From an uncultured archaeon (GTDB lineage: Archaea > Thermoplasmatota > Penumbrarchaeia > JASLWR01), in the NCBI GenBank assembly GCA_964430885.1, contig CAYSHM010000002.1, forward strand, positions 77,009 to 141,008: a DNA stretch of 64,000 nucleotides. Direction: 5' to 3'. The notes under the pieces are model-generated. The model was given only the letters and a program-made list of their open reading frames with translations. It searched no databases and was not told the DNA's origin. A program made the translations under genes and the position numbers. This document shows, piece by piece, positions 18,396 through 26,375 of this stretch; position 1 is the stretch's first letter; every line of letters begins with the position of its first letter.

Positions 18396-18677
18396 TTAAC
18401 ATACTTTATAGATCAATATTGTATGTCCTCTTTTTTCAACAATCGCTACTTCAGGTATCGATTCGGTGATATTTTTTTCAGTATCCTTTAAGCTAAACTG
18501 GTCTAAATAGCTTCTCAATACCTTGATTTTCAGCAATCTTTTCTTCTTCATTTGATTCCTAATTTCTTTTATTGAACTTATTGTCAATCCATCCTTTCCG
18601 ATTATTATTGAAGCTTTAATCTTCTGGCCCTTTTTCTTCAATTCTTTCTTTGCTTTATTGTCGATCTTCTTCGTCAT
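18396..18677 (-). CDS. yhbY: YhbY/CRM-domain RNA-binding protein
   Basis: IIIGKDGLT...LLKIKVL...RGHTILIY. Confidence 0.9.
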   Translation of the reverse strand: MTKKIDNKAKKELKKKGQKIKASIIIGKDGLTISSIKEIRNQMKKKRLLKIKVLRSYLDQFSLKDTEKNITESIPEVAIVEKRGHTILIYKVC

Positions 18678-18773: not shown

Positions 18774-19055
18774 TCATTTGTAAAGTTTTCTCTGGATGTT
18801 TCCGCATGACCGACAGGTTGCTATTTTTCGCCCTTTTCTAAATCGTATCATGCAAAATTTTTTTGATACAAAAGGAGTCAAGCATTTCTTGCAGTACATT
18901 CCCTCATACTCTCGGGATACGCGCTGATTCAATTTCATACCAATTTTTTTAGATCGTTCAATATAATTCAAGGCCAGACCTGCATCATCACCGCTTCCAA
19001 TATCAATCGCCTTGTCTAATAAAATGGCCATCCTCTCCACACCTATCTTTTCCAT
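18774..19055 (-). CDS. rnp4: Ribonuclease P protein component 4 (Rpp21); N-terminus may extend to 19109
   Basis: KIGVERMAILL...KKIGMK, YCKKC and TCRSCGNIQR zinc ribbon; adjacent to yhbY. Confidence 0.88.
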   Translation of the reverse strand: MEKIGVERMAILLDKAIDIGSGDDAGLALNYIERSKKIGMKLNQRVSREYEGMYCKKCLTPFVSKKFCMIRFRKGRKIATCRSCGNIQRKLYK

Positions 19056-19109
19056 ATTACGGTTCCTTTTGCCTTTTCCTCTCCTGTACCTTTTCCTCGT
19101 TCTTCTGAT

Positions 19110-19499
19110 TTAGTCTTCCCCCCTTCTGCTCAGGATCATTTCTTGAGATATGTCTAAAATATCATCCACTGTGATCTCATTTGGATTGATTCTCGCCTTG
19201 GTTACGAACTCAATTATCAAATCAATACCGCCTGCGCAGTATTGGCTGTATACAATGTTTGCTTCTCTTATGTTATCGGCTTCATCCATATGATGAAAAA
19301 GAAGGAAGAATACGCTTCTATTATCAACATCCCTGAAGCTAATGAAATCCTGATCTAGGTCCTCTACTTCGACAAATGAGGAGTTCAGCAATCCCAAGAC
19401 TGCTGTGGAGCGTATTATTGCTGTTTGATGAAATTGAGTACCGCACAGTGCGAGTGATCCTAGGAAATCAATGTGCCTTTTCGCCAACCTAATTTTCAA
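19110..19499 (-). CDS. Hypothetical protein resembling Dnd-associated protein 4 / DndE-like ribbon-helix-helix proteins
   Basis: N-terminal IRLAK strand-helix, TAVLG, and C-terminal YSQYCAGGIDLI (compare FEEYANGGLE.L in Dnd-associated proteins); directly downstream of a DndD-like ATPase. Confidence 0.5.
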   Translation of the reverse strand: MKIRLAKRHIDFLGSLALCGTQFHQTAIIRSTAVLGLLNSSFVEVEDLDQDFISFRDVDNRSVFFLLFHHMDEADNIREANIVYSQYCAGGIDLIIEFVTKARINPNEITVDDILDISQEMILSRRGED

Positions 19500-19524
19500 T
19501 TCAACTCACCACCGGTTTTTTGAA

Positions 19525-21810
19525 TCATATGACCCATTGTATCTCACCATCGTCCGATGAACCGTTCGGATCGACTTTATTTCCTCTTTTATCTTCATTA
19601 TCATTAATCCTTCCATCATCAGTACCATAGGATTCATCAATTATCTCGAAACTTCCCTCATTCTCTGTTTTTCCGGTTTTTTTCTTCCTATTTAAATCTC
19701 CGCCTTTAGAGCGCTGTTCACCTCTTGATTTGTAATTTTGATTCTCAACAGATTTATTACTATTCCTCAATTTTTTTACCTTCTTACGAATTCTCTTGGT
19801 TTTGGGTATCAATCGGGAACTTTTAATGCTTTCCTGAAAATCTATCTCATATAGGCCGTGAGAATTCTTTAGAATTGTAGTTCTGATGTTTTCTATATCA
19901 TCCTCAGTTGTCAAGATCACCTGTTGACCGGGAAGTTTGGCAAGGGTGTTAATCATTGATTTCTTGTTTAATCGGTCAAGATGAATAAATGGTGAATCGT
20001 AGATGATGGTCGTGTTCCCCCTTAATCTATTCAGTGACCAAATGAGTGCCATGAATACCAGAACCTTTTCGCCATCTGAGAATTCACTAGGATAGACCAA
20101 TAAATTATCCGGTGATTCAACTTTGATTGCCAAGGATTGATCCCCTTTTCTCATGATAACCTTTTCTATAATCCCCTTTTTTGAAAAAATACCCGATAAT
20201 ATCCTGTTCAGACCGGATTCGATATTTTCCCGGTTCTCATTTCTGACATCGAGAATGCTTTCAGAAATGGCCTTTTTGATCTTCCTAGCCATTTTGATCT
20301 TCCTGAGATGCCGATCGGTAGAGGCCCTTGTTGATCGGCTCAGTTTCTCGAACTCGGCGTATGTTTCTTCGATCTCTTCACCAATGCTAGATATTACCTC
20401 TTCCATACCATGGAGTTCCATCTTGACCTTATGCATTCTGCGTCTCTCTATGGATATGTCGTTCAGAAGGCTTTGATATCTGTTCTTGGTCTCATCATCC
20501 TCAGCAAACTTCAATAGGGTTGGGTATCTGATAACAAGTTCCTCAAGCGATGTTTGCAGCTTGTTTAGTTTGGCAATCTTGATCTGTCTGTTGTCCATGG
20601 CCTTTTCAATATCTGCGATATATCGGTTTAGGATAAGGGTCAGGTCTGATATCTCCTGCAGGTTGATCTCTGGAGGAAGTTTCATCCTTTTGAATTCCCG
20701 CTCATTTTCAAATATCTCCGTCTGAAGTTCAGTTTTCAGCTCCTCCATTCCATGCATAACATCCGGAGTTTGTTTTATTCTGTTGTTGCATACTGAGCAT
20801 CGTCCTGAACTAATGCCAGGTTCAAAAAACGAGGTTATGAGTTCCTGCTGAGCTTCTAATTTTCCTGTATTTCTTCTTAGCTCATTGCATTCTTTTTCCT
20901 TTTTCTTGGCCCAGGTCAGTGCAGCATCAATATTGCTCTTGATAAGAAAATAGGGTTCCATTTCATACCTTTCAGTCAAGATGAAATTACTTTTAGATAT
21001 CTCCTTTTTCAACTTGTAAATTCTCTTCTGGAGACGTTCCTGTATGCCAAGCATTTTTTGCAGTCCCTTTACTTTTTTGGTTGTTCTCATAAGGGACCTT
21101 ATACAGTCTTTCTGATGGTCCAATGAATCCCTCAACTGCCTTCTTCTGATCTTTAGTTTATTTTTCTTTACCTTAAGAAGGTAAATTCTTTTCTTCAAAT
21201 GGGATAGATCTCTAGAGCTTGAATTCTTGGTCAGGAACTCGATGTTCTTCTTGTTGTATTCACTTATGTTCATCTTTGCATTATGCAGTATGTCCAAACC
21301 AAGAAAGGTATCTATTGCCTTTTTAGAAATCACGCCGTTATCGTCATCCATATGGGTTCTGAAGTTGGGAAACAGATATTTTGCAGTCTCCAGATTAATG
21401 ACCTTCTCAAGAGCTTCCAATAATTCTGAATAGGGCCTTTCCTTTCCCTGTGTGGTTACCGTGACCTTCATATTATTGGATGGATATATGCTCCGCTTGA
21501 AAGTGAACACTTCCCTTCCGATTTTCAATTTCAATCCTATGAAACATTTCTTCTTGCCAGTTTCATGGGCGTGTCGGTTGATAAGACTCTTATAGTCCGG
21601 TTCTTGTAAAGACCTTCTTCTGTCAACACCGAAAAGAGCAAAAAATATCCCGTCCACAATTACACTCTTTCCCGATCCATTTCTGCCGATTATAACTGTC
21701 AGAGAGGATGATTTGTTTCCTGCATTTTCACACTCCCTTGCAGGAATTCTGATAATATGCTTTCCATAATAGACCCTGTAATTATAGAGCTGGATCTCCC
21801 TAATTTCCAT
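19525..21810 (-). CDS. SMC/Rad50-superfamily ABC ATPase, DndD-like
   Basis: Walker A GRNGSGKS, long coiled coil with central CSVC hook, signature FSDGEK, Walker B/D-loop IIYDSPFIHLD, QQVILTTEDD; charged disordered C-terminal tail. Confidence 0.88.
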   Translation of the reverse strand: MEIREIQLYNYRVYYGKHIIRIPARECENAGNKSSSLTVIIGRNGSGKSVIVDGIFFALFGVDRRRSLQEPDYKSLINRHAHETGKKKCFIGLKLKIGREVFTFKRSIYPSNNMKVTVTTQGKERPYSELLEALEKVINLETAKYLFPNFRTHMDDDNGVISKKAIDTFLGLDILHNAKMNISEYNKKNIEFLTKNSSSRDLSHLKKRIYLLKVKKNKLKIRRRQLRDSLDHQKDCIRSLMRTTKKVKGLQKMLGIQERLQKRIYKLKKEISKSNFILTERYEMEPYFLIKSNIDAALTWAKKKEKECNELRRNTGKLEAQQELITSFFEPGISSGRCSVCNNRIKQTPDVMHGMEELKTELQTEIFENEREFKRMKLPPEINLQEISDLTLILNRYIADIEKAMDNRQIKIAKLNKLQTSLEELVIRYPTLLKFAEDDETKNRYQSLLNDISIERRRMHKVKMELHGMEEVISSIGEEIEETYAEFEKLSRSTRASTDRHLRKIKMARKIKKAISESILDVRNENRENIESGLNRILSGIFSKKGIIEKVIMRKGDQSLAIKVESPDNLLVYPSEFSDGEKVLVFMALIWSLNRLRGNTTIIYDSPFIHLDRLNKKSMINTLAKLPGQQVILTTEDDIENIRTTILKNSHGLYEIDFQESIKSSRLIPKTKRIRKKVKKLRNSNKSVENQNYKSRGEQRSKGGDLNRKKKTGKTENEGSFEIIDESYGTDDGRINDNEDKRGNKVDPNGSSDDGEIQWVI

Positions 21811-22038
21811 TTAAAGCCCCTCCTCCTCTTCATCATCGGCCACATCTATCTCTTTTGACGAGAACAGGGCCCTCTCTACCAACCTCTCCATCCTACGAAA
21901 GTCATACTGGTTACTCTCTCCGATTGTAACAATATTATCTGCCAGGTCCGGAGCCACATCCAGAAGCACTAGATGGGTTTCCAGTATCTCTTTGATCTTA
22001 TTATAGGTTCCAGTAGGTATGCAGTTAATCTTTTTCAA
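21811..22038 (-). CDS. Small helical protein translationally coupled to the SMC-like ATPase
   Basis: 75 aa; its stop abuts the ATG of the ATPase; acidic C-terminus; the GGAGG RBS for the ATPase lies in its last codons. Confidence 0.65.
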   Translation of the reverse strand: MKKINCIPTGTYNKIKEILETHLVLLDVAPDLADNIVTIGESNQYDFRRMERLVERALFSSKEIDVADDEEEEGL

Positions 22039-22070: not shown

Positions 22071-22478
22071 TTAAGAAATATTCGTTATCTTTCCCTTCAG
22101 TTTCTTAATGGTACCTGAGCATTTAACGGTCTTCAGACTAATTTTCGTTTCTGTTCTATTATTGAATCTCCACATTTCATTCATTACTGAATTGAAGAAA
22201 TCCCGGTGTTTTTGTTCATGCTTATGCTCAGACTTGAATATTGCCTTATTTCCATCCAACAGTATTAACCATGGCGCGTTAATTTTTTCATCAACATTGT
22301 TTTTTCTGATATATCTGCCGAACAGAACATTGATCAAGTGTATTATTTCACCTCTTTCAAAAGAAGTTGGATTATTCATACCTTTTTGTTCCTTTTTTTC
22401 ATTGATTTCCATATTTATTTCCATTTCTACTAGCAAATACCTTTTCCTGCCAATTATATCCTTGACCGCCATGAACAA
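22071..22478 (-). CDS. rnp2: Ribonuclease P protein component 2 (Pop5/Rpp14)
   Basis: GRKRYLLVE at the N-terminus, PWLI, and KTVKCSGTIKKLK at the C-terminus. Confidence 0.85.
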   Translation of the reverse strand: MFMAVKDIIGRKRYLLVEMEINMEINEKKEQKGMNNPTSFERGEIIHLINVLFGRYIRKNNVDEKINAPWLILLDGNKAIFKSEHKHEQKHRDFFNSVMNEMWRFNNRTETKISLKTVKCSGTIKKLKGKITNIS

Positions 22479-22791: not shown

Positions 22792-23151
22792 AGGTGGTTC
22801 TGTCCGGTTTATAAGCCTCCTTCTGTTTCAGATAAATCGTCGCCGATATACCCTAGATGACATTCAACTAAGCGTCCTACCTTTTGGTCAACGGGAGGTT
22901 CATACCAATACGTTTGGACTTGCTCCAGGGAGGATTGGCCGTTTCATCAAATCCTGTTTCGTAGTCAGAGCCTAACTCATCATTCCATTACGGTCGAACC
23001 GCGTGAAACAGGCTGTGTCGTTTCTGATCCATTGCCTGCCTTCTCAGACATCCGGATTGCCCCGGATCCCTTTACCCGTAGGAGGGAGGACTTTCCTCAG
23101 CAAACCCTAAAAAGGGAGCACCGTCGGTCATCCATCCGCTCAGAACCACCT
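22792..23151 (-). ncRNA. rnpB: RNase P RNA (archaeal)
   Basis: Minus strand: terminal P1 helix AGGUGGUUCUG/CAGAACCACCU, CR-I GAGGAAAGUCC, CAGAAACG, GAUGAAACGG, GAGCAAG, CR-V AACAGAAGGAGGCUUAU, and a K-turn (AUGAUGA...CUGA) in the P12 region. Confidence 0.96.
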
Positions 23152-23363: not shown

Positions 23364-26300
23364 ATGAAAACACAAATGAAGAAAATGACGGCATTATTGC
23401 TGGCAGCGTTCATGTTGTTGAGCGTTATTCCTTTGTTGTCCACAAGCGGCGCAGAGGATGCAGCGGATGCTCGTGAAGGAGAGGTTGAGTTTGTGTCTGC
23501 AATGATAGACGGGAACTGGACCTACAATGATGATATGGATACAATATTCTCACCCGGTAATTGGCTAGTGGAGGTTGAATTCAACTTGACTATGGCTTTG
23601 ACCGGTGTAGAGATATATATCAATGTCACCGATAACACCACTGCCGATGAAGCTTACTATCATGAAGCTTTGGGTGACCTTGGTATGGGTATGAATGGAA
23701 CAGATAGTGATATGTTCGACTTCACCAATGAAACTCATTGGTATACGATCAATGTCACAATCTTGAGCGACACAACCTGGGATTTCAAGGAGTACTATTA
23801 CTATATCGAAGAGATATATGATGTATTCATGTTCACACACACTATCCTTGAGGAACCCGCACTTACTGGCGAGTATGCATTGGATGTAATCAATTTCATG
23901 CCTGTACTCTTCAATACCGGTAACATGGGTCTCACAGCGATTACTACCGTCAACATGACCGTTGTGAACGCTACCAGAGATGTTGTTCATGAGACTGGCG
24001 GAGTTGTTGCTCCCATGGACTACGAAATGATGGGATTCACACAGCTCACCTGGACACCTACTGTGGAGGGTTATTATGAGGTTAACTTCACATATAACTG
24101 TTCCGAAGTTGATGGCAATGCTGTCTACTTATACATGAACAATAATGTGTCTGTTATGGTTGAGAATGTTACTTCCTACGACCTTTCCTTGGAACTTCCA
24201 ATGAATGAGATCGGCGAGGGAGAAGCAATCAACGCCAATATCACCATCAACAATACTGGTAACGTTGCTCATGATTTCGTTTATACAATCAACGTTACAA
24301 GCGGAACCACCTACGACATGGGTCAGCAGTTGAGCACAGGCGAACTAGCCCCCGGTGCCGAACATACTCATTTCTACAGCAATGTGATGAGCGCAGCTGG
24401 TATGTATGATATCACTGTGACCATGCAGCTGGACGGCGGGCAGGCCACATTACCCTTCGAGGTATTAATCGTCAATGTAGACCCCGAGGTAGAGGATGAG
24501 ACTGTCTTGGCTCAAAATATTTATGAGGGTGATGAGGTGACCTTTGTTGCCAACTACACCGATGATAACGGCGACCTGGGATATGTCACACTATTCATTG
24601 ATGCTGTCTGGAATGAGACTTCTGAGCAGTTCGAGAACGGAACCGGATATGCTATGGTGATCCTGAATGCCACAGATGCCAACTACACAGCCGGAGAGCT
24701 TTATGACTACACCTGGACCGCTGTAGAGGGTGAATATAACTATTCACTTTATGCAGAGGACGGAAATGGTGGTATTTATTACACCGAAGAGGCTGTAGAA
24801 TTCACAGTCGGTGCTGAGCAGTTCGCTCCTGAACTGGACGATCTCACCGATGACATCGAGGCCTATGCAGACGAGAATGTTACATTCGTTGTCAACTACA
24901 TGGACGAGAATGGAGATGTTGGAGACCTGTGGATCAAGATCGACGAGCTCATGCTCAACGACACGGATGATAACTCATCCAATTGGACCACCTCCTGGGA
25001 AGAGGGCGAGTGGATGGAAATGACAAACGCTACCGATAACTGGACCGGCGGAGTCAACTTCACCTATGAGGCTTCTTTCGAGAATGCAACCTACAGATAC
25101 TGCTTCAAGGCTATCGATCCAATCCTTGGCGCCTTCATGACCGACGCTGTCGAGTTCACCATCATGGCTGCACTGCCCACCGAGGGTATTGTATCCGGTA
25201 TGGTAACCACCGGCGAAGGCAATGACACAGTATACCACGATGCTGATATCGTTATATACATGGAATGGGTGGAAGAGGTTACCGAGGAGTTCAACGGAAC
25301 CAATGTCACAACAAATGTGACCCATGTGATGTACTACAACACCACAGCTGTGAACGGTTCCTACGAGAAGATACTTCCATTCGGCACATACACAATATAT
25401 GTGACCGGTGTTGCTGGCTATCTTGATGCCGACGAAGAGGAATTCACCCTTGACGCCGACAACCTCAACGAGACCATTGACTTCGAGCTTGAAATTGAGA
25501 TCATAGTCTATACCATCGTTGTTGGTCCTTTCGAGGATGCAGATGGAAACGCAGTAGTCGGTGCTACAGTATCTTTCTCAGTAGCAGATACCAGAGCGGA
25601 TTACACAGCAGATACCAACGGAACAGGTTATGCCCACTTTGAGGACATGCCTTTCGATGCTATCCCATCCGGCACAAACATGACCATCACAAAGGGCGCC
25701 GACACCTATACATGGGCTTTCGGAGCAGATCTTCCTGAATTCCCAGGCGAACCCACGACCCACGATGTAACAGTCGGACCCATAGAAGATGCAGATGGGA
25801 ACCCCGTTGCCAACGCATCTGTCAAGGTCGTCATCGGAAACGATACTTACACAGTTATCACCGATGCAGATGGGAATGCAGTATTCAAGCTTCCTCTAGG
25901 CGTTGACATACCCGCCGGTGCGGACTTCACTGCAACCAAGGGCGATGAAACCATCACTTGGAAGCAGGGCGAATCCATACCTGGTTTCGAAGGCGAAACA
26001 GATGATGACGATGACGAAGAGAGCAACCTTTGGGTGATCATACTTGTCATAGTCATTGTGATCATCGTGATCATCGTGATCGTTGTGCTGGTCACCAAGA
26101 AGAAGCCCGAAGAGAAGTCCCTTGAGGACATCGAGGACGAGGAGATGGAAGAAGGACTCGGCGACGATTACGACGAGGACTTCGAGGATGTGGAAGAAGA
26201 TTCCGATGTCGAGGATTTCGAGGATTTCGAGCCAGAGCCCACCGATGATGAGATGGAGGGCGTCGATGACATGGCCGATGAAATGGAAGACTTCGATGAT

Positions 26301-26375
26301 GGAGAGGACTTCGAAGATGAGGACTTCGGGGACTACGAGGACGATTTCGACGATGATTTCGACGATGACATCTAA
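23364..26375 (+). CDS. Acidic cell-surface (S-layer-like) glycoprotein with CARDB/Ig-like domains, C-terminal TM and very acidic tail
   Basis: Signal peptide, many N-x-S/T sequons, internal domain duplications (VTFVANYTDDNGD/VTFVVNYMDENGD; VGPFEDADGN/VGPIEDADGN), TM helix, D/E-rich tail, strong C-ending codon bias, GAGGTGA RBS. Confidence 0.8.
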   Translation: MKTQMKKMTALLLAAFMLLSVIPLLSTSGAEDAADAREGEVEFVSAMIDGNWTYNDDMDTIFSPGNWLVEVEFNLTMALTGVEIYINVTDNTTADEAYYHEALGDLGMGMNGTDSDMFDFTNETHWYTINVTILSDTTWDFKEYYYYIEEIYDVFMFTHTILEEPALTGEYALDVINFMPVLFNTGNMGLTAITTVNMTVVNATRDVVHETGGVVAPMDYEMMGFTQLTWTPTVEGYYEVNFTYNCSEVDGNAVYLYMNNNVSVMVENVTSYDLSLELPMNEIGEGEAINANITINNTGNVAHDFVYTINVTSGTTYDMGQQLSTGELAPGAEHTHFYSNVMSAAGMYDITVTMQLDGGQATLPFEVLIVNVDPEVEDETVLAQNIYEGDEVTFVANYTDDNGDLGYVTLFIDAVWNETSEQFENGTGYAMVILNATDANYTAGELYDYTWTAVEGEYNYSLYAEDGNGGIYYTEEAVEFTVGAEQFAPELDDLTDDIEAYADENVTFVVNYMDENGDVGDLWIKIDELMLNDTDDNSSNWTTSWEEGEWMEMTNATDNWTGGVNFTYEASFENATYRYCFKAIDPILGAFMTDAVEFTIMAALPTEGIVSGMVTTGEGNDTVYHDADIVIYMEWVEEVTEEFNGTNVTTNVTHVMYYNTTAVNGSYEKILPFGTYTIYVTGVAGYLDADEEEFTLDADNLNETIDFELEIEIIVYTIVVGPFEDADGNAVVGATVSFSVADTRADYTADTNGTGYAHFEDMPFDAIPSGTNMTITKGADTYTWAFGADLPEFPGEPTTHDVTVGPIEDADGNPVANASVKVVIGNDTYTVITDADGNAVFKLPLGVDIPAGADFTATKGDETITWKQGESIPGFEGETDDDDDEESNLWVIILVIVIVIIVIIVIVVLVTKKKPEEKSLEDIEDEEMEEGLGDDYDEDFEDVEEDSDVEDFEDFEPEPTDDEMEGVDDMADEMEDFDDGEDFEDEDFGDYEDDFDDDFDDDI

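Follow-up and report, generated by a model that had tools for sequence, protein, structure and literature searches.

A Pbe-like core without PbeA, conserved between RNase P genes in an order of Thermoplasmatota

Within a 64,000-nt stretch of the genome of an uncultured Thermoplasmatota archaeon (GenBank assembly GCA_964430885.1, contig CAYSHM010000002.1, positions 77,009–141,008 of the forward strand; hereinafter the window), we analyzed a trio of co-oriented genes that is flanked by the genes for the RNase P subunits Pop5 and Rpp21. These code for a 75-aa small protein (window positions 21811–22038), a 761-aa coiled-coil ATPase of the ATP-binding cassette (ABC) type (19525–21810) and a 129-aa DndE-like protein (19110–19499; hereinafter p129), all on the minus strand. 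The combined evidence gives good support to the view that the trio is a Pbe-like core, equivalent to PbeB-PbeC-PbeD, without PbeA. Since its gene order, with the small protein ('SP') in the position of PbeB and p129 in that of PbeD, matches the PbeB-PbeC-PbeD order published in the description of these systems (PMC10853773), it is better regarded as a known module minus PbeA than as the 'orphan' type proposed in the initial annotation of this stretch. With moderate confidence, we further propose that the trio acts on DNA without a nuclease, and that it is expressed with the RNase P genes for constitutive supply rather than for a joint function. The coordinates given in the initial annotation, the successive gaps of 32, 0 and 25 nt between pop5, the small gene, the ATPase gene and the p129 gene, and the motifs quoted there were all reproduced from the translated open reading frames (ORFs).

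The evidence that carries this assignment begins with the ATPase. Pfam SMC_N matches its residues 31–636 (4.7e-18), and a hingeless coiled-coil insert of ~400 residues divides its ABC head, the layout by which ATPases of the DndD/CxC clade are recognized. The NCBIfam DndD model TIGR03185 aligns with it end to end (ATPase residues 1–667 on model positions 1–645 of 650), and the PADLOC models for DndD (99.4 bits) and PbeC (84.3 bits) both match over its full length, with a weaker match to LmuB (1.9e-14). End to end, the DndD and PbeC models span 630–660 positions, and the conserved part of the ATPase comprises ~680 residues; it is followed by a C-terminal tail of ~80 residues rich in K, R, E, D, G and N (19528–19773, minus strand), which is present in this genome's copy only, the other seven aligned ATPases being without it.

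The catalytic motifs, likewise encoded on the minus strand, are invariant. They include the Walker A motif GRNGSGKS (residues 42–49; 21664–21687), of which G42, N44, G45, G47, K48 and S49 are invariant in the eight aligned ATPases; the signature FSDGE (residues 577–581; 20068–20082), with S578, D579, G580 and E581 invariant in the same eight; and a Walker B motif with D-loop, TTIIYDSPFIHLD (residues 601–612; 19975–20010), with D605, P607, F608, L611 and D612 invariant. DSPFIHLD corresponds to residues 605–612 and QQVILTT to residues 629–635; in the alignment with relatives the final TT of the latter, the Walker A residues, SDGE and D-SPF-x-LD are all invariant. Although the signature had been described as atypical at first, SDGE is shared by all eight aligned ATPases, two PbeC-type ones included. 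The Walker B aspartate is followed by Ser, not Glu, both here and in most of the aligned ATPases, again including the two of PbeC type, and by Phe in P0002 and P0003. As the SDGE, the DSPF and the absent Walker B Glu are thus common to the aligned DndD/CxC-type ATPases, they are features of the clade rather than peculiarities of this protein. In the middle of the coiled coil lies a two-cysteine hook, CSVC (residues 338–341; 20788–20799), a CxxC pair whose C338 and C341 are invariant in all six sequences of the order's clade. Hook-bearing ATPases elsewhere in the phylum mostly have CxC, three of them (L027, L032 and L033) also having CxxC, and in the alignment the second Cys of the hook coincides with that of the CxC motif borne by the ATPases of loci L016 and L017.

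We placed the ATPase in a maximum-likelihood tree of 34 rows, made up of 27 ATPases from Thermoplasmatota loci, six sequences from the order's clade and the Rad50-like protein of the window's genome, with L026 and L046 left out owing to unreliable ORF calls. Rad50 is split off with a support of 100 and the DndC-linked DndD group with 98, and the order's clade is nested among the hook-bearing CxC types as the sister of L025, L028, L047 and L051 (Shimodaira–Hasegawa-like approximate likelihood ratio test: 96). Together with the NCBIfam and PADLOC matches, the tree supports the initial annotation in assigning the ATPase to the DndD/CxC assemblage, a membership that we regard as firm, and not to Rad50. 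That it is instead a Rad50-like protein, or one of the archaea-specific SMC-related proteins (ASRPs; ClsN, Sph, arcadin-4 type), serving chromosome organization, with neighbors that merely resemble DndE, we deem very improbable. The zinc-hook-like CxxC does recall Rad50 and, as described in PMC9389158, most ASRPs; the NCBIfam arcadin-4 model (NF053563) is matched at 40.6 bits (E 9.3e-11; cut-off 860), the closest solved sequence is the Rad50 head 5f3w (53.9 bits), and tree topology tests leave a Rad50-adjacent position unrejected (see below). However, the arcadin-4 match is confined to residues 2–188 and those to Rad50 models (≤39 bits; cut-offs 700–1087) to residues 36–122, that is, to the N-terminal head, to which the matches of SMC models (≤40 bits) are likewise limited, whereas the DndD and PbeC models align end to end. 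Moreover, the same genome encodes a separate canonical SMC and a Rad50-like 805-aa protein with a CPTC hook (contig C4), no Mre11 gene adjoins the ATPase, and the pairing with a DndE-fold partner and an upstream small protein is a hallmark of DndD/CxC systems.

The reading frame of p129 lies 25 nt downstream of that of the ATPase. In profile-profile comparisons with hhalign, the order's p129 alignment matched one made from 12 CxC-linked partners at a probability of 95.6% (E 1.3e-8, 100 columns), which in turn matched canonical DndE (77.9%, E 1.8e-5, 112 columns); the direct comparison of p129 with canonical DndE was weak (24.6%). An AlphaFold2 (AF2) model of p129 built from four sequences alone was unusable (predicted local distance difference test [pLDDT] 50), and we used instead a model from a 20-row alignment (pLDDT 93.3; predicted template modelling score 0.87). 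This model consists of two strand-helix-helix units followed by a C-terminal helix (strands at residues 2–5 and 50–54; helices at 7–15, 22–38, 55–58, 63–70, 77–101 and 111–126). Its top matches in the PDB by VIA-align are DndE structures, namely 7x4e (Z 8.5, root-mean-square deviation 2.9 Å over 100 aligned residues), 5wtu (Z 7.2) and 4lrv (Z 6.8), followed by an F-plasmid relaxosome chain (Z 6.6) and by unrelated rows at ≤4.9. These results agree with PMC10853773, where DndE is characterized as a tandem ribbon-helix-helix (RHH) protein similar to TraY. With Foldseek all E-values exceeded 0.8, and the only rows with a template modelling score above 0.44 were DndE entries; as a lead only, 16 of 30 p129 hits in the ESM Atlas fall in a set carrying PF08870. 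Profile and fold comparison together show p129, as modelled, to be a divergent DndE composed of a tandem RHH and a C-terminal helix, and so bear out its labelling as DndE-like in the initial annotation. Outside the order, searches by sequence retrieved nothing further: word-based homologue searches recovered the order's own proteins only, the p129 profile, run with HMMER against all 1.84 billion representatives, picked up four proteins, all of the same clade, and the p129 and small-protein profiles gave chance-level rows against PDB sequences (E 0.69 and 0.053).

The 75-aa protein has a conserved core followed by an acidic tail and is kept in all four genomes of the order. Against the other small-protein alignments it gave no significant match with hhalign (probabilities of 1% and 9.8%). 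Its position is nevertheless a recurrent one: small ORFs of 44–69 aa lie immediately upstream of the ATPase in 20 Thermoplasmatota loci (18 rows of alignment A9 plus L028 and L043). A two-chain structure prediction of the ATPase with the 75-aa protein yielded a median ipSAE of 0.61 over three runs, with none of three controls above 0.00, and in the predicted interface the contacts agree at ≥93% and the pLDDT of the partner is ≥70. On calibration, 116 of 157 solved complexes passed the ipSAE mark, as did 2 of 215 mismatched pairs; because custom alignments were used here, these counts apply only roughly. As the PDB copy searched holds no solved DndD or PbeC structure, the interface is unlikely to be a memory of a like complex. 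The predicted contacts involve ATPase residues 135–141, 170–188 and 503–522, which would be the head-proximal start and end of the coiled coil; the N-domain of kleisins binds the SMC neck in the corresponding place. The prediction thus supports, short of demonstrating, a binding of the 75-aa protein to the ATPase, and together with the position in the 20 loci it upholds the small upstream partner noted initially.

Conservation of the trio was studied across its order within Thermoplasmatota, which comprises four species genomes from three genera with a completeness of 88–93%. The genes for RNase P RNA, pop5, the small protein, the ATPase, p129, rpp21 and yhbY occur in the same order in all four, opposite a large surface protein, with protein identities of 34–43% across the order (ATPase: 37–41%). 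In the three relatives most of the gene borders overlap or touch: pop5 and the small gene overlap by 8–14 nt in two, the small gene overlaps that of the ATPase by 11–20 nt, the ATPase gene overlaps that of p129 by 4 nt, and rpp21, given its long form, overlaps p129 or starts within ~3 nt of it. For the closest pair, the only one not saturated (L013 versus L014), the ratios of nonsynonymous to synonymous substitution rates (dN/dS) are 0.085 (ATPase), 0.098 (p129), 0.27 (small protein), 0.26 (pop5) and 0.18 (rpp21). Since the trio is kept in all four genomes with dN/dS well below 1, it is no chance ORF pattern. All three ORFs are intact in each genome; a single TGA lies within the match in G002, but this match extends beyond the stop of a 700-aa ORF. 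Scans of genome contigs and metagenomes found no further organism with the locus: L018 and L019 are the loci of G003 and G001, L065 shares 99.95% identity with L014, and the matches L020 and L066 are short and unrelated.

These data also speak to the notion that the trio is a functionless remnant of a degraded defense island carried along in a housekeeping operon. The missing effector, the long stem branch of the ATPase and the low-complexity tail of this genome's copy would suit such a remnant, but ORFs intact in 4/4 genomes, dN/dS values of 0.085–0.27, invariant catalytic motifs, a confident p129 model and a predicted interface between the ATPase and the small protein make it scarcely credible. 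The synteny in 4/4 genomes together with these dN/dS values likewise fits the trio not being a decaying insertion.

The surrounding RNase P genes have a history of their own, and all are on the minus strand. The RNase P RNA gene (22800–23143) matches Rfam RF00373 with 184.6 bits (gathering threshold 84; model positions 1–288); contigs of an RNA library cover 22805–23151 without differences, and the gene also lies upstream of pop5 in L013, L014 and L015, hence in all four genomes of the order. The 135-aa ORF of the divergent pop5 (22071–22478) is weakly confirmed, its match to PF01900 (E 1.4e-3, 19.1 bits) staying under the cut-off of 23, but the order has no other syntenic pop5; its orthologues are 34–39% identical. 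Its likely start is the ATG at 22472, the relatives beginning with MTVKDKVGRKRY. The 93-aa rpp21 (18774–19055) matches PF04032 at 1.4e-7 and 32.1 bits, above the cut-off of 29.3, and is present in one copy per genome. The block closes with a gene for a YhbY/CRS1-type RNA-binding protein (18396–18677; PF01985, 3.6e-13), syntenic in 4/4 genomes. The Pfam model for Rpp30 (PF01876) had no match in any of 37 genomes from the class, that of the window (G000) included, as against Pop5, Rpp21 and Rpp29, which were found; because this holds across the class, we take the missing match for a limit of detection and not for a feature of the order. Rpp30 of this class is either very divergent or absent.

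Outside the order, pop5 and rpp21 are far apart or on different contigs wherever both could be placed, and the RNase P RNA gene is absent from six pop5 or rpp21 loci in four genomes of the class. In three other genomes of the class (G012, G035 and G009) pop5 adjoins psmA and SBDS; in the genome of the window psmA, SBDS and Rrp4 lie on another contig, without pop5. The block of RNase P RNA, pop5, trio and rpp21 was therefore newly assembled in the order: with pop5 and rpp21 separate elsewhere, there was no older RNase P cluster for the trio to enter. Hence the earlier view of a module embedded in an RNase P gene cluster is right in that the trio lies between pop5 and rpp21, whereas the cluster itself is specific to the order and already has the trio inside it.

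This gathering of RNase P RNA, pop5 and rpp21 in the order only around the trio is one observation behind the idea that the module takes part in RNase P function or in RNA processing. Its part could be physical, for example with Pop5 or Rpp21 bound to the trio or with the RHH protein bound to RNase P RNA or the gene encoding it, or it could consist in regulating the operon. The overlaps across the pop5/small gene and p129/rpp21 borders in the relatives point the same way, as do a DndE-like gene of genome G073 that overlaps a PF01877 'RNA_binding' gene by 4 nt and the fact that in the window p129 and rpp21 share one frame, with one TAA and 18 K/R-rich codons in between. Specifically, the 54-nt spacer between them (19056–19109, minus strand) comprises, after the p129 stop TAA, 18 in-frame K/R-rich codons that run up to the rpp21 ATG, with no ATG, GTG or TTG among them; in the three relatives, Rpp21 has a K/R-rich N-terminal extension with start codons. 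The extension of the window's Rpp21 may have been lost, may begin at an unusual codon or may be reached by read-through. This common frame is, however, not conserved, being found in 2/4 genomes (L013 and L014 differ). Archaeal operons often mix unrelated housekeeping genes, which counts against reading function into the arrangement. The families involved, as described in PMC10853773 and PMC6459918, act on DNA. Neither do the spacers between the RNase P RNA gene and pop5 contain a conserved operator-like element: when aligned, they have only AT-rich promoter-like stretches in common. We had also considered whether Pop5 and Rpp21 of the order evolve unusually fast; this found no support, their divergence not being unusual, which again speaks against a shared function. 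Overall, a functional link to RNase P appears improbable to us. The same low standing applies to its fullest form, in which an effector-less Pbe-like SMC complex would have been recruited into RNase P biology to assemble with, or regulate, the RNase P ribonucleoprotein or its locus, with translationally coupled genes. Such a link would, if real, be unprecedented, and the adjacency of a DndE-like and a PF01877 gene in G073 would then suggest a recurrent coupling of nuclease-less CxC modules with RNA processing in Thermoplasmatota.

We return to the proposal of a Pbe-like core that acts on DNA by itself, for which the missing effector is central. Domain scans within ~15 kb of the trio recovered no PbeA, DndC, nuclease-helicase, methylase, Mre11, kleisin or mobility gene, in agreement with what had been noted of the immediate neighbors; the genes within this range code for metabolic or surface proteins, including HMG-CoA reductase, UPF0047, a TPR protein, the large surface protein, an acyl-CoA dehydrogenase and XseA. 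A dnd or pbe set elsewhere in the genome, which might have explained the trio, was not found either, in that DndC and PbeA went undetected in the four genomes of the order. The DndC model TIGR03183 exceeded its cut-off in 0/4, its best hits (19–28 bits) being to a ~690-aa protein with PUA and PAPS-reductase domains. The PbeA model gave hits to the helicase region only (≤88 bits; model positions ≥193) that leave the HKD part uncovered; such generic helicase hits occur alike in 14 control genomes, and a true PbeA, in G131, scores 456 + 222 bits. The five proteins of the window's genome with phospholipase D (PLD) domains are seemingly large secreted or membrane proteins without a helicase. As an observation in its own right, these five (C15:21163–22737, C29:15905–18718, C5:89023–92706, C2:194888–197785 and C7:111844–118890) measure 524–2348 aa, four of them above 900 aa, each with paired PLD/HKD domains and, by eye, with signal-peptide-like starts, C-terminal membrane anchors and several repeat domains; they form an expanded family of surface PLD-like proteins.

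A more conventional explanation sees in the trio an ordinary anti-virus system, with its effector or modification enzyme encoded at another site or coming from a family not yet recognized; its conservation would then reflect a small and close sample. The published systems are indeed defense systems in the accounts of PMC10853773 and PMC6459918, the genomes are incomplete, and in the phylum the PbeC model finds matches in a patchy 44 of 401 Thermoplasmatota genomes (E ≤ 1e-15, some of the matches being Rad50), with clear defense contexts elsewhere, namely PbeA-SP-PbeC-DndE in, for example, L067 (a bona fide PbeA locus), and a methylase with Z1 and DUF4420 at L058; a further context is DndC-DndD-DndE, at six loci. 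Yet the trio occupies the same position in 4/4 genomes of three genera whose ATPases are only 37–41% identical, unlike what the turnover of defense islands produces; no mobility or defense genes lie within ~15 kb; the ATPase and p129 are more constrained than pop5 and rpp21 by dN/dS; and PbeA and DndC were not found in the order's four genomes. We accordingly judge this explanation unlikely, while giving it real weight. Effector-less trios are also found in the two families closest to the order in the tree.

Among these wider loci, several features stood out in their own right. L067 (4606–6715, minus strand; G131) is a PbeABCD locus that is complete except that its PbeA is divided between two ORFs, of 474 and 219 aa; directly downstream lies a type II restriction-modification pair. 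In L017 (5182–10754) and L057 (6295–13221), an effector-less trio of SP, CxC ATPase and DndE lies directly downstream of Hel308 and Cgi121, an arrangement seen in two genera of one of the near families; in G051, an additional AAA_14/DUF4143 ATPase intervenes in this locus. The DndE-like/PF01877 regions of the other near family are L055 (7347–8185) and L056 (9519–11797): the overlap in G073 belongs here, with genes for an HHH protein and an N6/N4 DNA methylase coming after the PF01877 gene in that genome, and in G065 the PF01877 gene lies 1.4 kb downstream of the DndE-like gene. We take PF01877 to be COG1325 of the exosome superoperon. Between the CxC ATPase and the DndE-like gene, L055 (8186–8449) and L056 (9318–9518) have a spacer of 200–265 nt with a conserved short ORF that starts with MKVVR and is otherwise odd in sequence, which may represent a small RNA or an element read in the wrong frame.

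Several observations weigh against the assignment of the trio to a Pbe-like core and against its proposed role. For the ATPase, the best PADLOC model is DndD and not PbeC, the TIGR03185 score of 73.6 bits misses the equivalog cut-off of 245.85, the hook is spaced CxxC instead of CxC, and the stem of the order's clade is long (1.18 substitutions per site). Approximately unbiased (AU) tests rejected neither a grouping of the order's ATPases with DndD (p=0.273) nor a position beside the Rad50 outgroup (p=0.183); as both placements are left standing, we treat a position inside the CxC sub-clade as favored and go no further. The 75-aa protein has no relatives outside the order in Pfam, NCBIfam, PADLOC or hhalign searches and no usable hit in the ESM Atlas. 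p129 likewise has no match in Pfam (PF08870 at E ≤ 0.1), NCBIfam or PADLOC; these misses say little, because the same models miss the CxC-linked and true Pbe partners, the Pfam DndE model PF08870 matching 4/4 DndC-linked partners and missing 14 of 15 partners of hook-bearing ATPases, and PADLOC naming neither small partner in the bona fide PbeA-PbeC locus. The order has only four species genomes, so that 'fixed' refers to a small and related sample. The absence of an effector is unproven, because at 88–93% completeness an unlinked one could escape, and one of an undescribed family would be invisible to these searches. As to co-transcription, the one RNA library found has contigs over the RNase P RNA gene only and is uninformative on mRNAs. 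For the domesticated, possibly housekeeping machine co-expressed with RNA-processing genes that the initial annotation proposed, the evidence is gene order, overlaps and conservation.

With these reservations, the activity of the trio can be pictured by inference from its families. Two ATPases would dimerize via the hook and their ATP-engaged heads, the small protein would be bound, as predicted, at the head-proximal coiled coil, p129 would contact DNA through its β-ribbon, and ATP cycles might enable the complex to scan or clamp DNA. The trio, which is under purifying selection and vertically inherited in each of the four genomes, is probably transcribed with the RNase P RNA, pop5, rpp21 and yhbY genes, as gene order, overlaps and conservation suggest, a setting that would provide constitutive expression without a shared function. 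The complex would leave the DNA uncut, in a nuclease-free surveillance or a replication block of foreign DNA; alternatively, it may have been exapted for chromosome maintenance. An activity without a nuclease is plausible, because Pbe is reported in PMC6459918 to halt viral DNA replication without DNA cleavage and, while its full protection needs all four genes, pbeBCD without pbeA is described there as retaining low-level protection.

Two further genes of the window lie near the block. A 1003-aa surface protein with many N-glycosylation sequons, a membrane anchor and a very acidic C-terminal tail (23364–26375, plus strand) is divergent to the adjoining RNase P RNA gene in 4/4 genomes of the order (32–43% identity). 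At 13 kb from the trio, with unrelated genes in between, a homologue of the exonuclease VII large subunit XseA is encoded in this archaeal genome (4898–6445, minus strand; PF02601, 2.1e-85).

The dyad of DndD/CxC ATPase and DndE has been presented in the literature as a DNA-scanning core of defense and modification systems that recruit nucleases or modification enzymes. Here, the core and its small protein persist without a recognizable effector, fixed at one site across an archaeal order and under purifying selection within an essential RNA-processing block; this is the pattern expected of a defense module exapted to a cellular role. The locus would thereby offer a minimal three-protein system for the core's own activity, such as DNA clamping, replication blocking or chromosome organization, and the predicted contact with the ATPase suggests a testable structural role for PbeB-type proteins, hitherto called disordered regulators. 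We found no paper in which DndD is brought together with RNase P and archaea; effector-less CxC-DndE pairs from Thermoplasmatota may already be listed in the supplements of PMC10853773, beyond the range of this search.

Comparison with known systems sets the trio in context. With the ASRPs it shares, going by the account in PMC9389158, an archaeal coiled-coil ATPase, a zinc-hook-like motif and a possible housekeeping role; it differs in that the arcadin-4 model matches the N-terminal head only, and the same account does not describe DndE-like or small-protein partners for them. Like SMC-ScpAB, Rad50-Mre11 and the LmuB of Lamassu, the ATPase combines a split ABC head with an antiparallel coiled coil and an apical dimerization element, and a small subunit is predicted at the head-proximal coiled coil. 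However, the coiled coil is much shorter, there is no hinge, Mre11, kleisin or kite homologue, the DNA binder would be a tandem RHH, and the genome has separate SMC and Rad50-like genes. Closer is DndABCDE, with which the trio has in common the dyad of ABC ATPase and DndE, the best PADLOC and NCBIfam model being DndD and p129 superposing on solved DndE; unlike in that system, there is no DndC or DndA context, a small protein is present upstream, the ATPase has a Cys hook, which DndD is described as lacking (PMC10853773), and the TIGR03185 and PF08870 cut-offs are missed.

The best counterpart is PbeABCD, the CxC ABC-ATPase-centered system of Xiong et al. (2019; PMC6459918), as re-annotated in PMC10853773, with PbeA as a nuclease-helicase, PbeB as the small protein, PbeC as the ATPase and PbeD as the DndE cognate. 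That account treats the CxC ABC ATPases as sister to DndD and as bearing a Zn hook; a clade-2 DndE is their constant partner, and a small disordered protein and an HKD-SF2 (superfamily 2) helicase typically accompany them. In contrast to PbeABCD, the trio has no PbeA (HKD nuclease and SF2 helicase), methylase or adjacent dnd genes, its hook is CxxC and not CxC, its ATPase is very divergent, as the length of its stem attests, and it occupies one site across the order within an RNase P block, whereas Pbe is patchy in defense islands. What they share is the order of a small protein, a Cys-hook coiled-coil ATPase and a DndE-like tandem RHH protein, as set out in PMC10853773, with comparable sizes (75, 761 and 129 aa here; 66 aa for PbeB and 152 aa for PbeD in PMC6459918). 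Like PbeC, moreover, the ATPase is aligned by PbeC models over its full length and is placed by the tree, by preference, among the CxC types, and p129 is closer to the CxC-linked DndE-like proteins than to canonical DndE.

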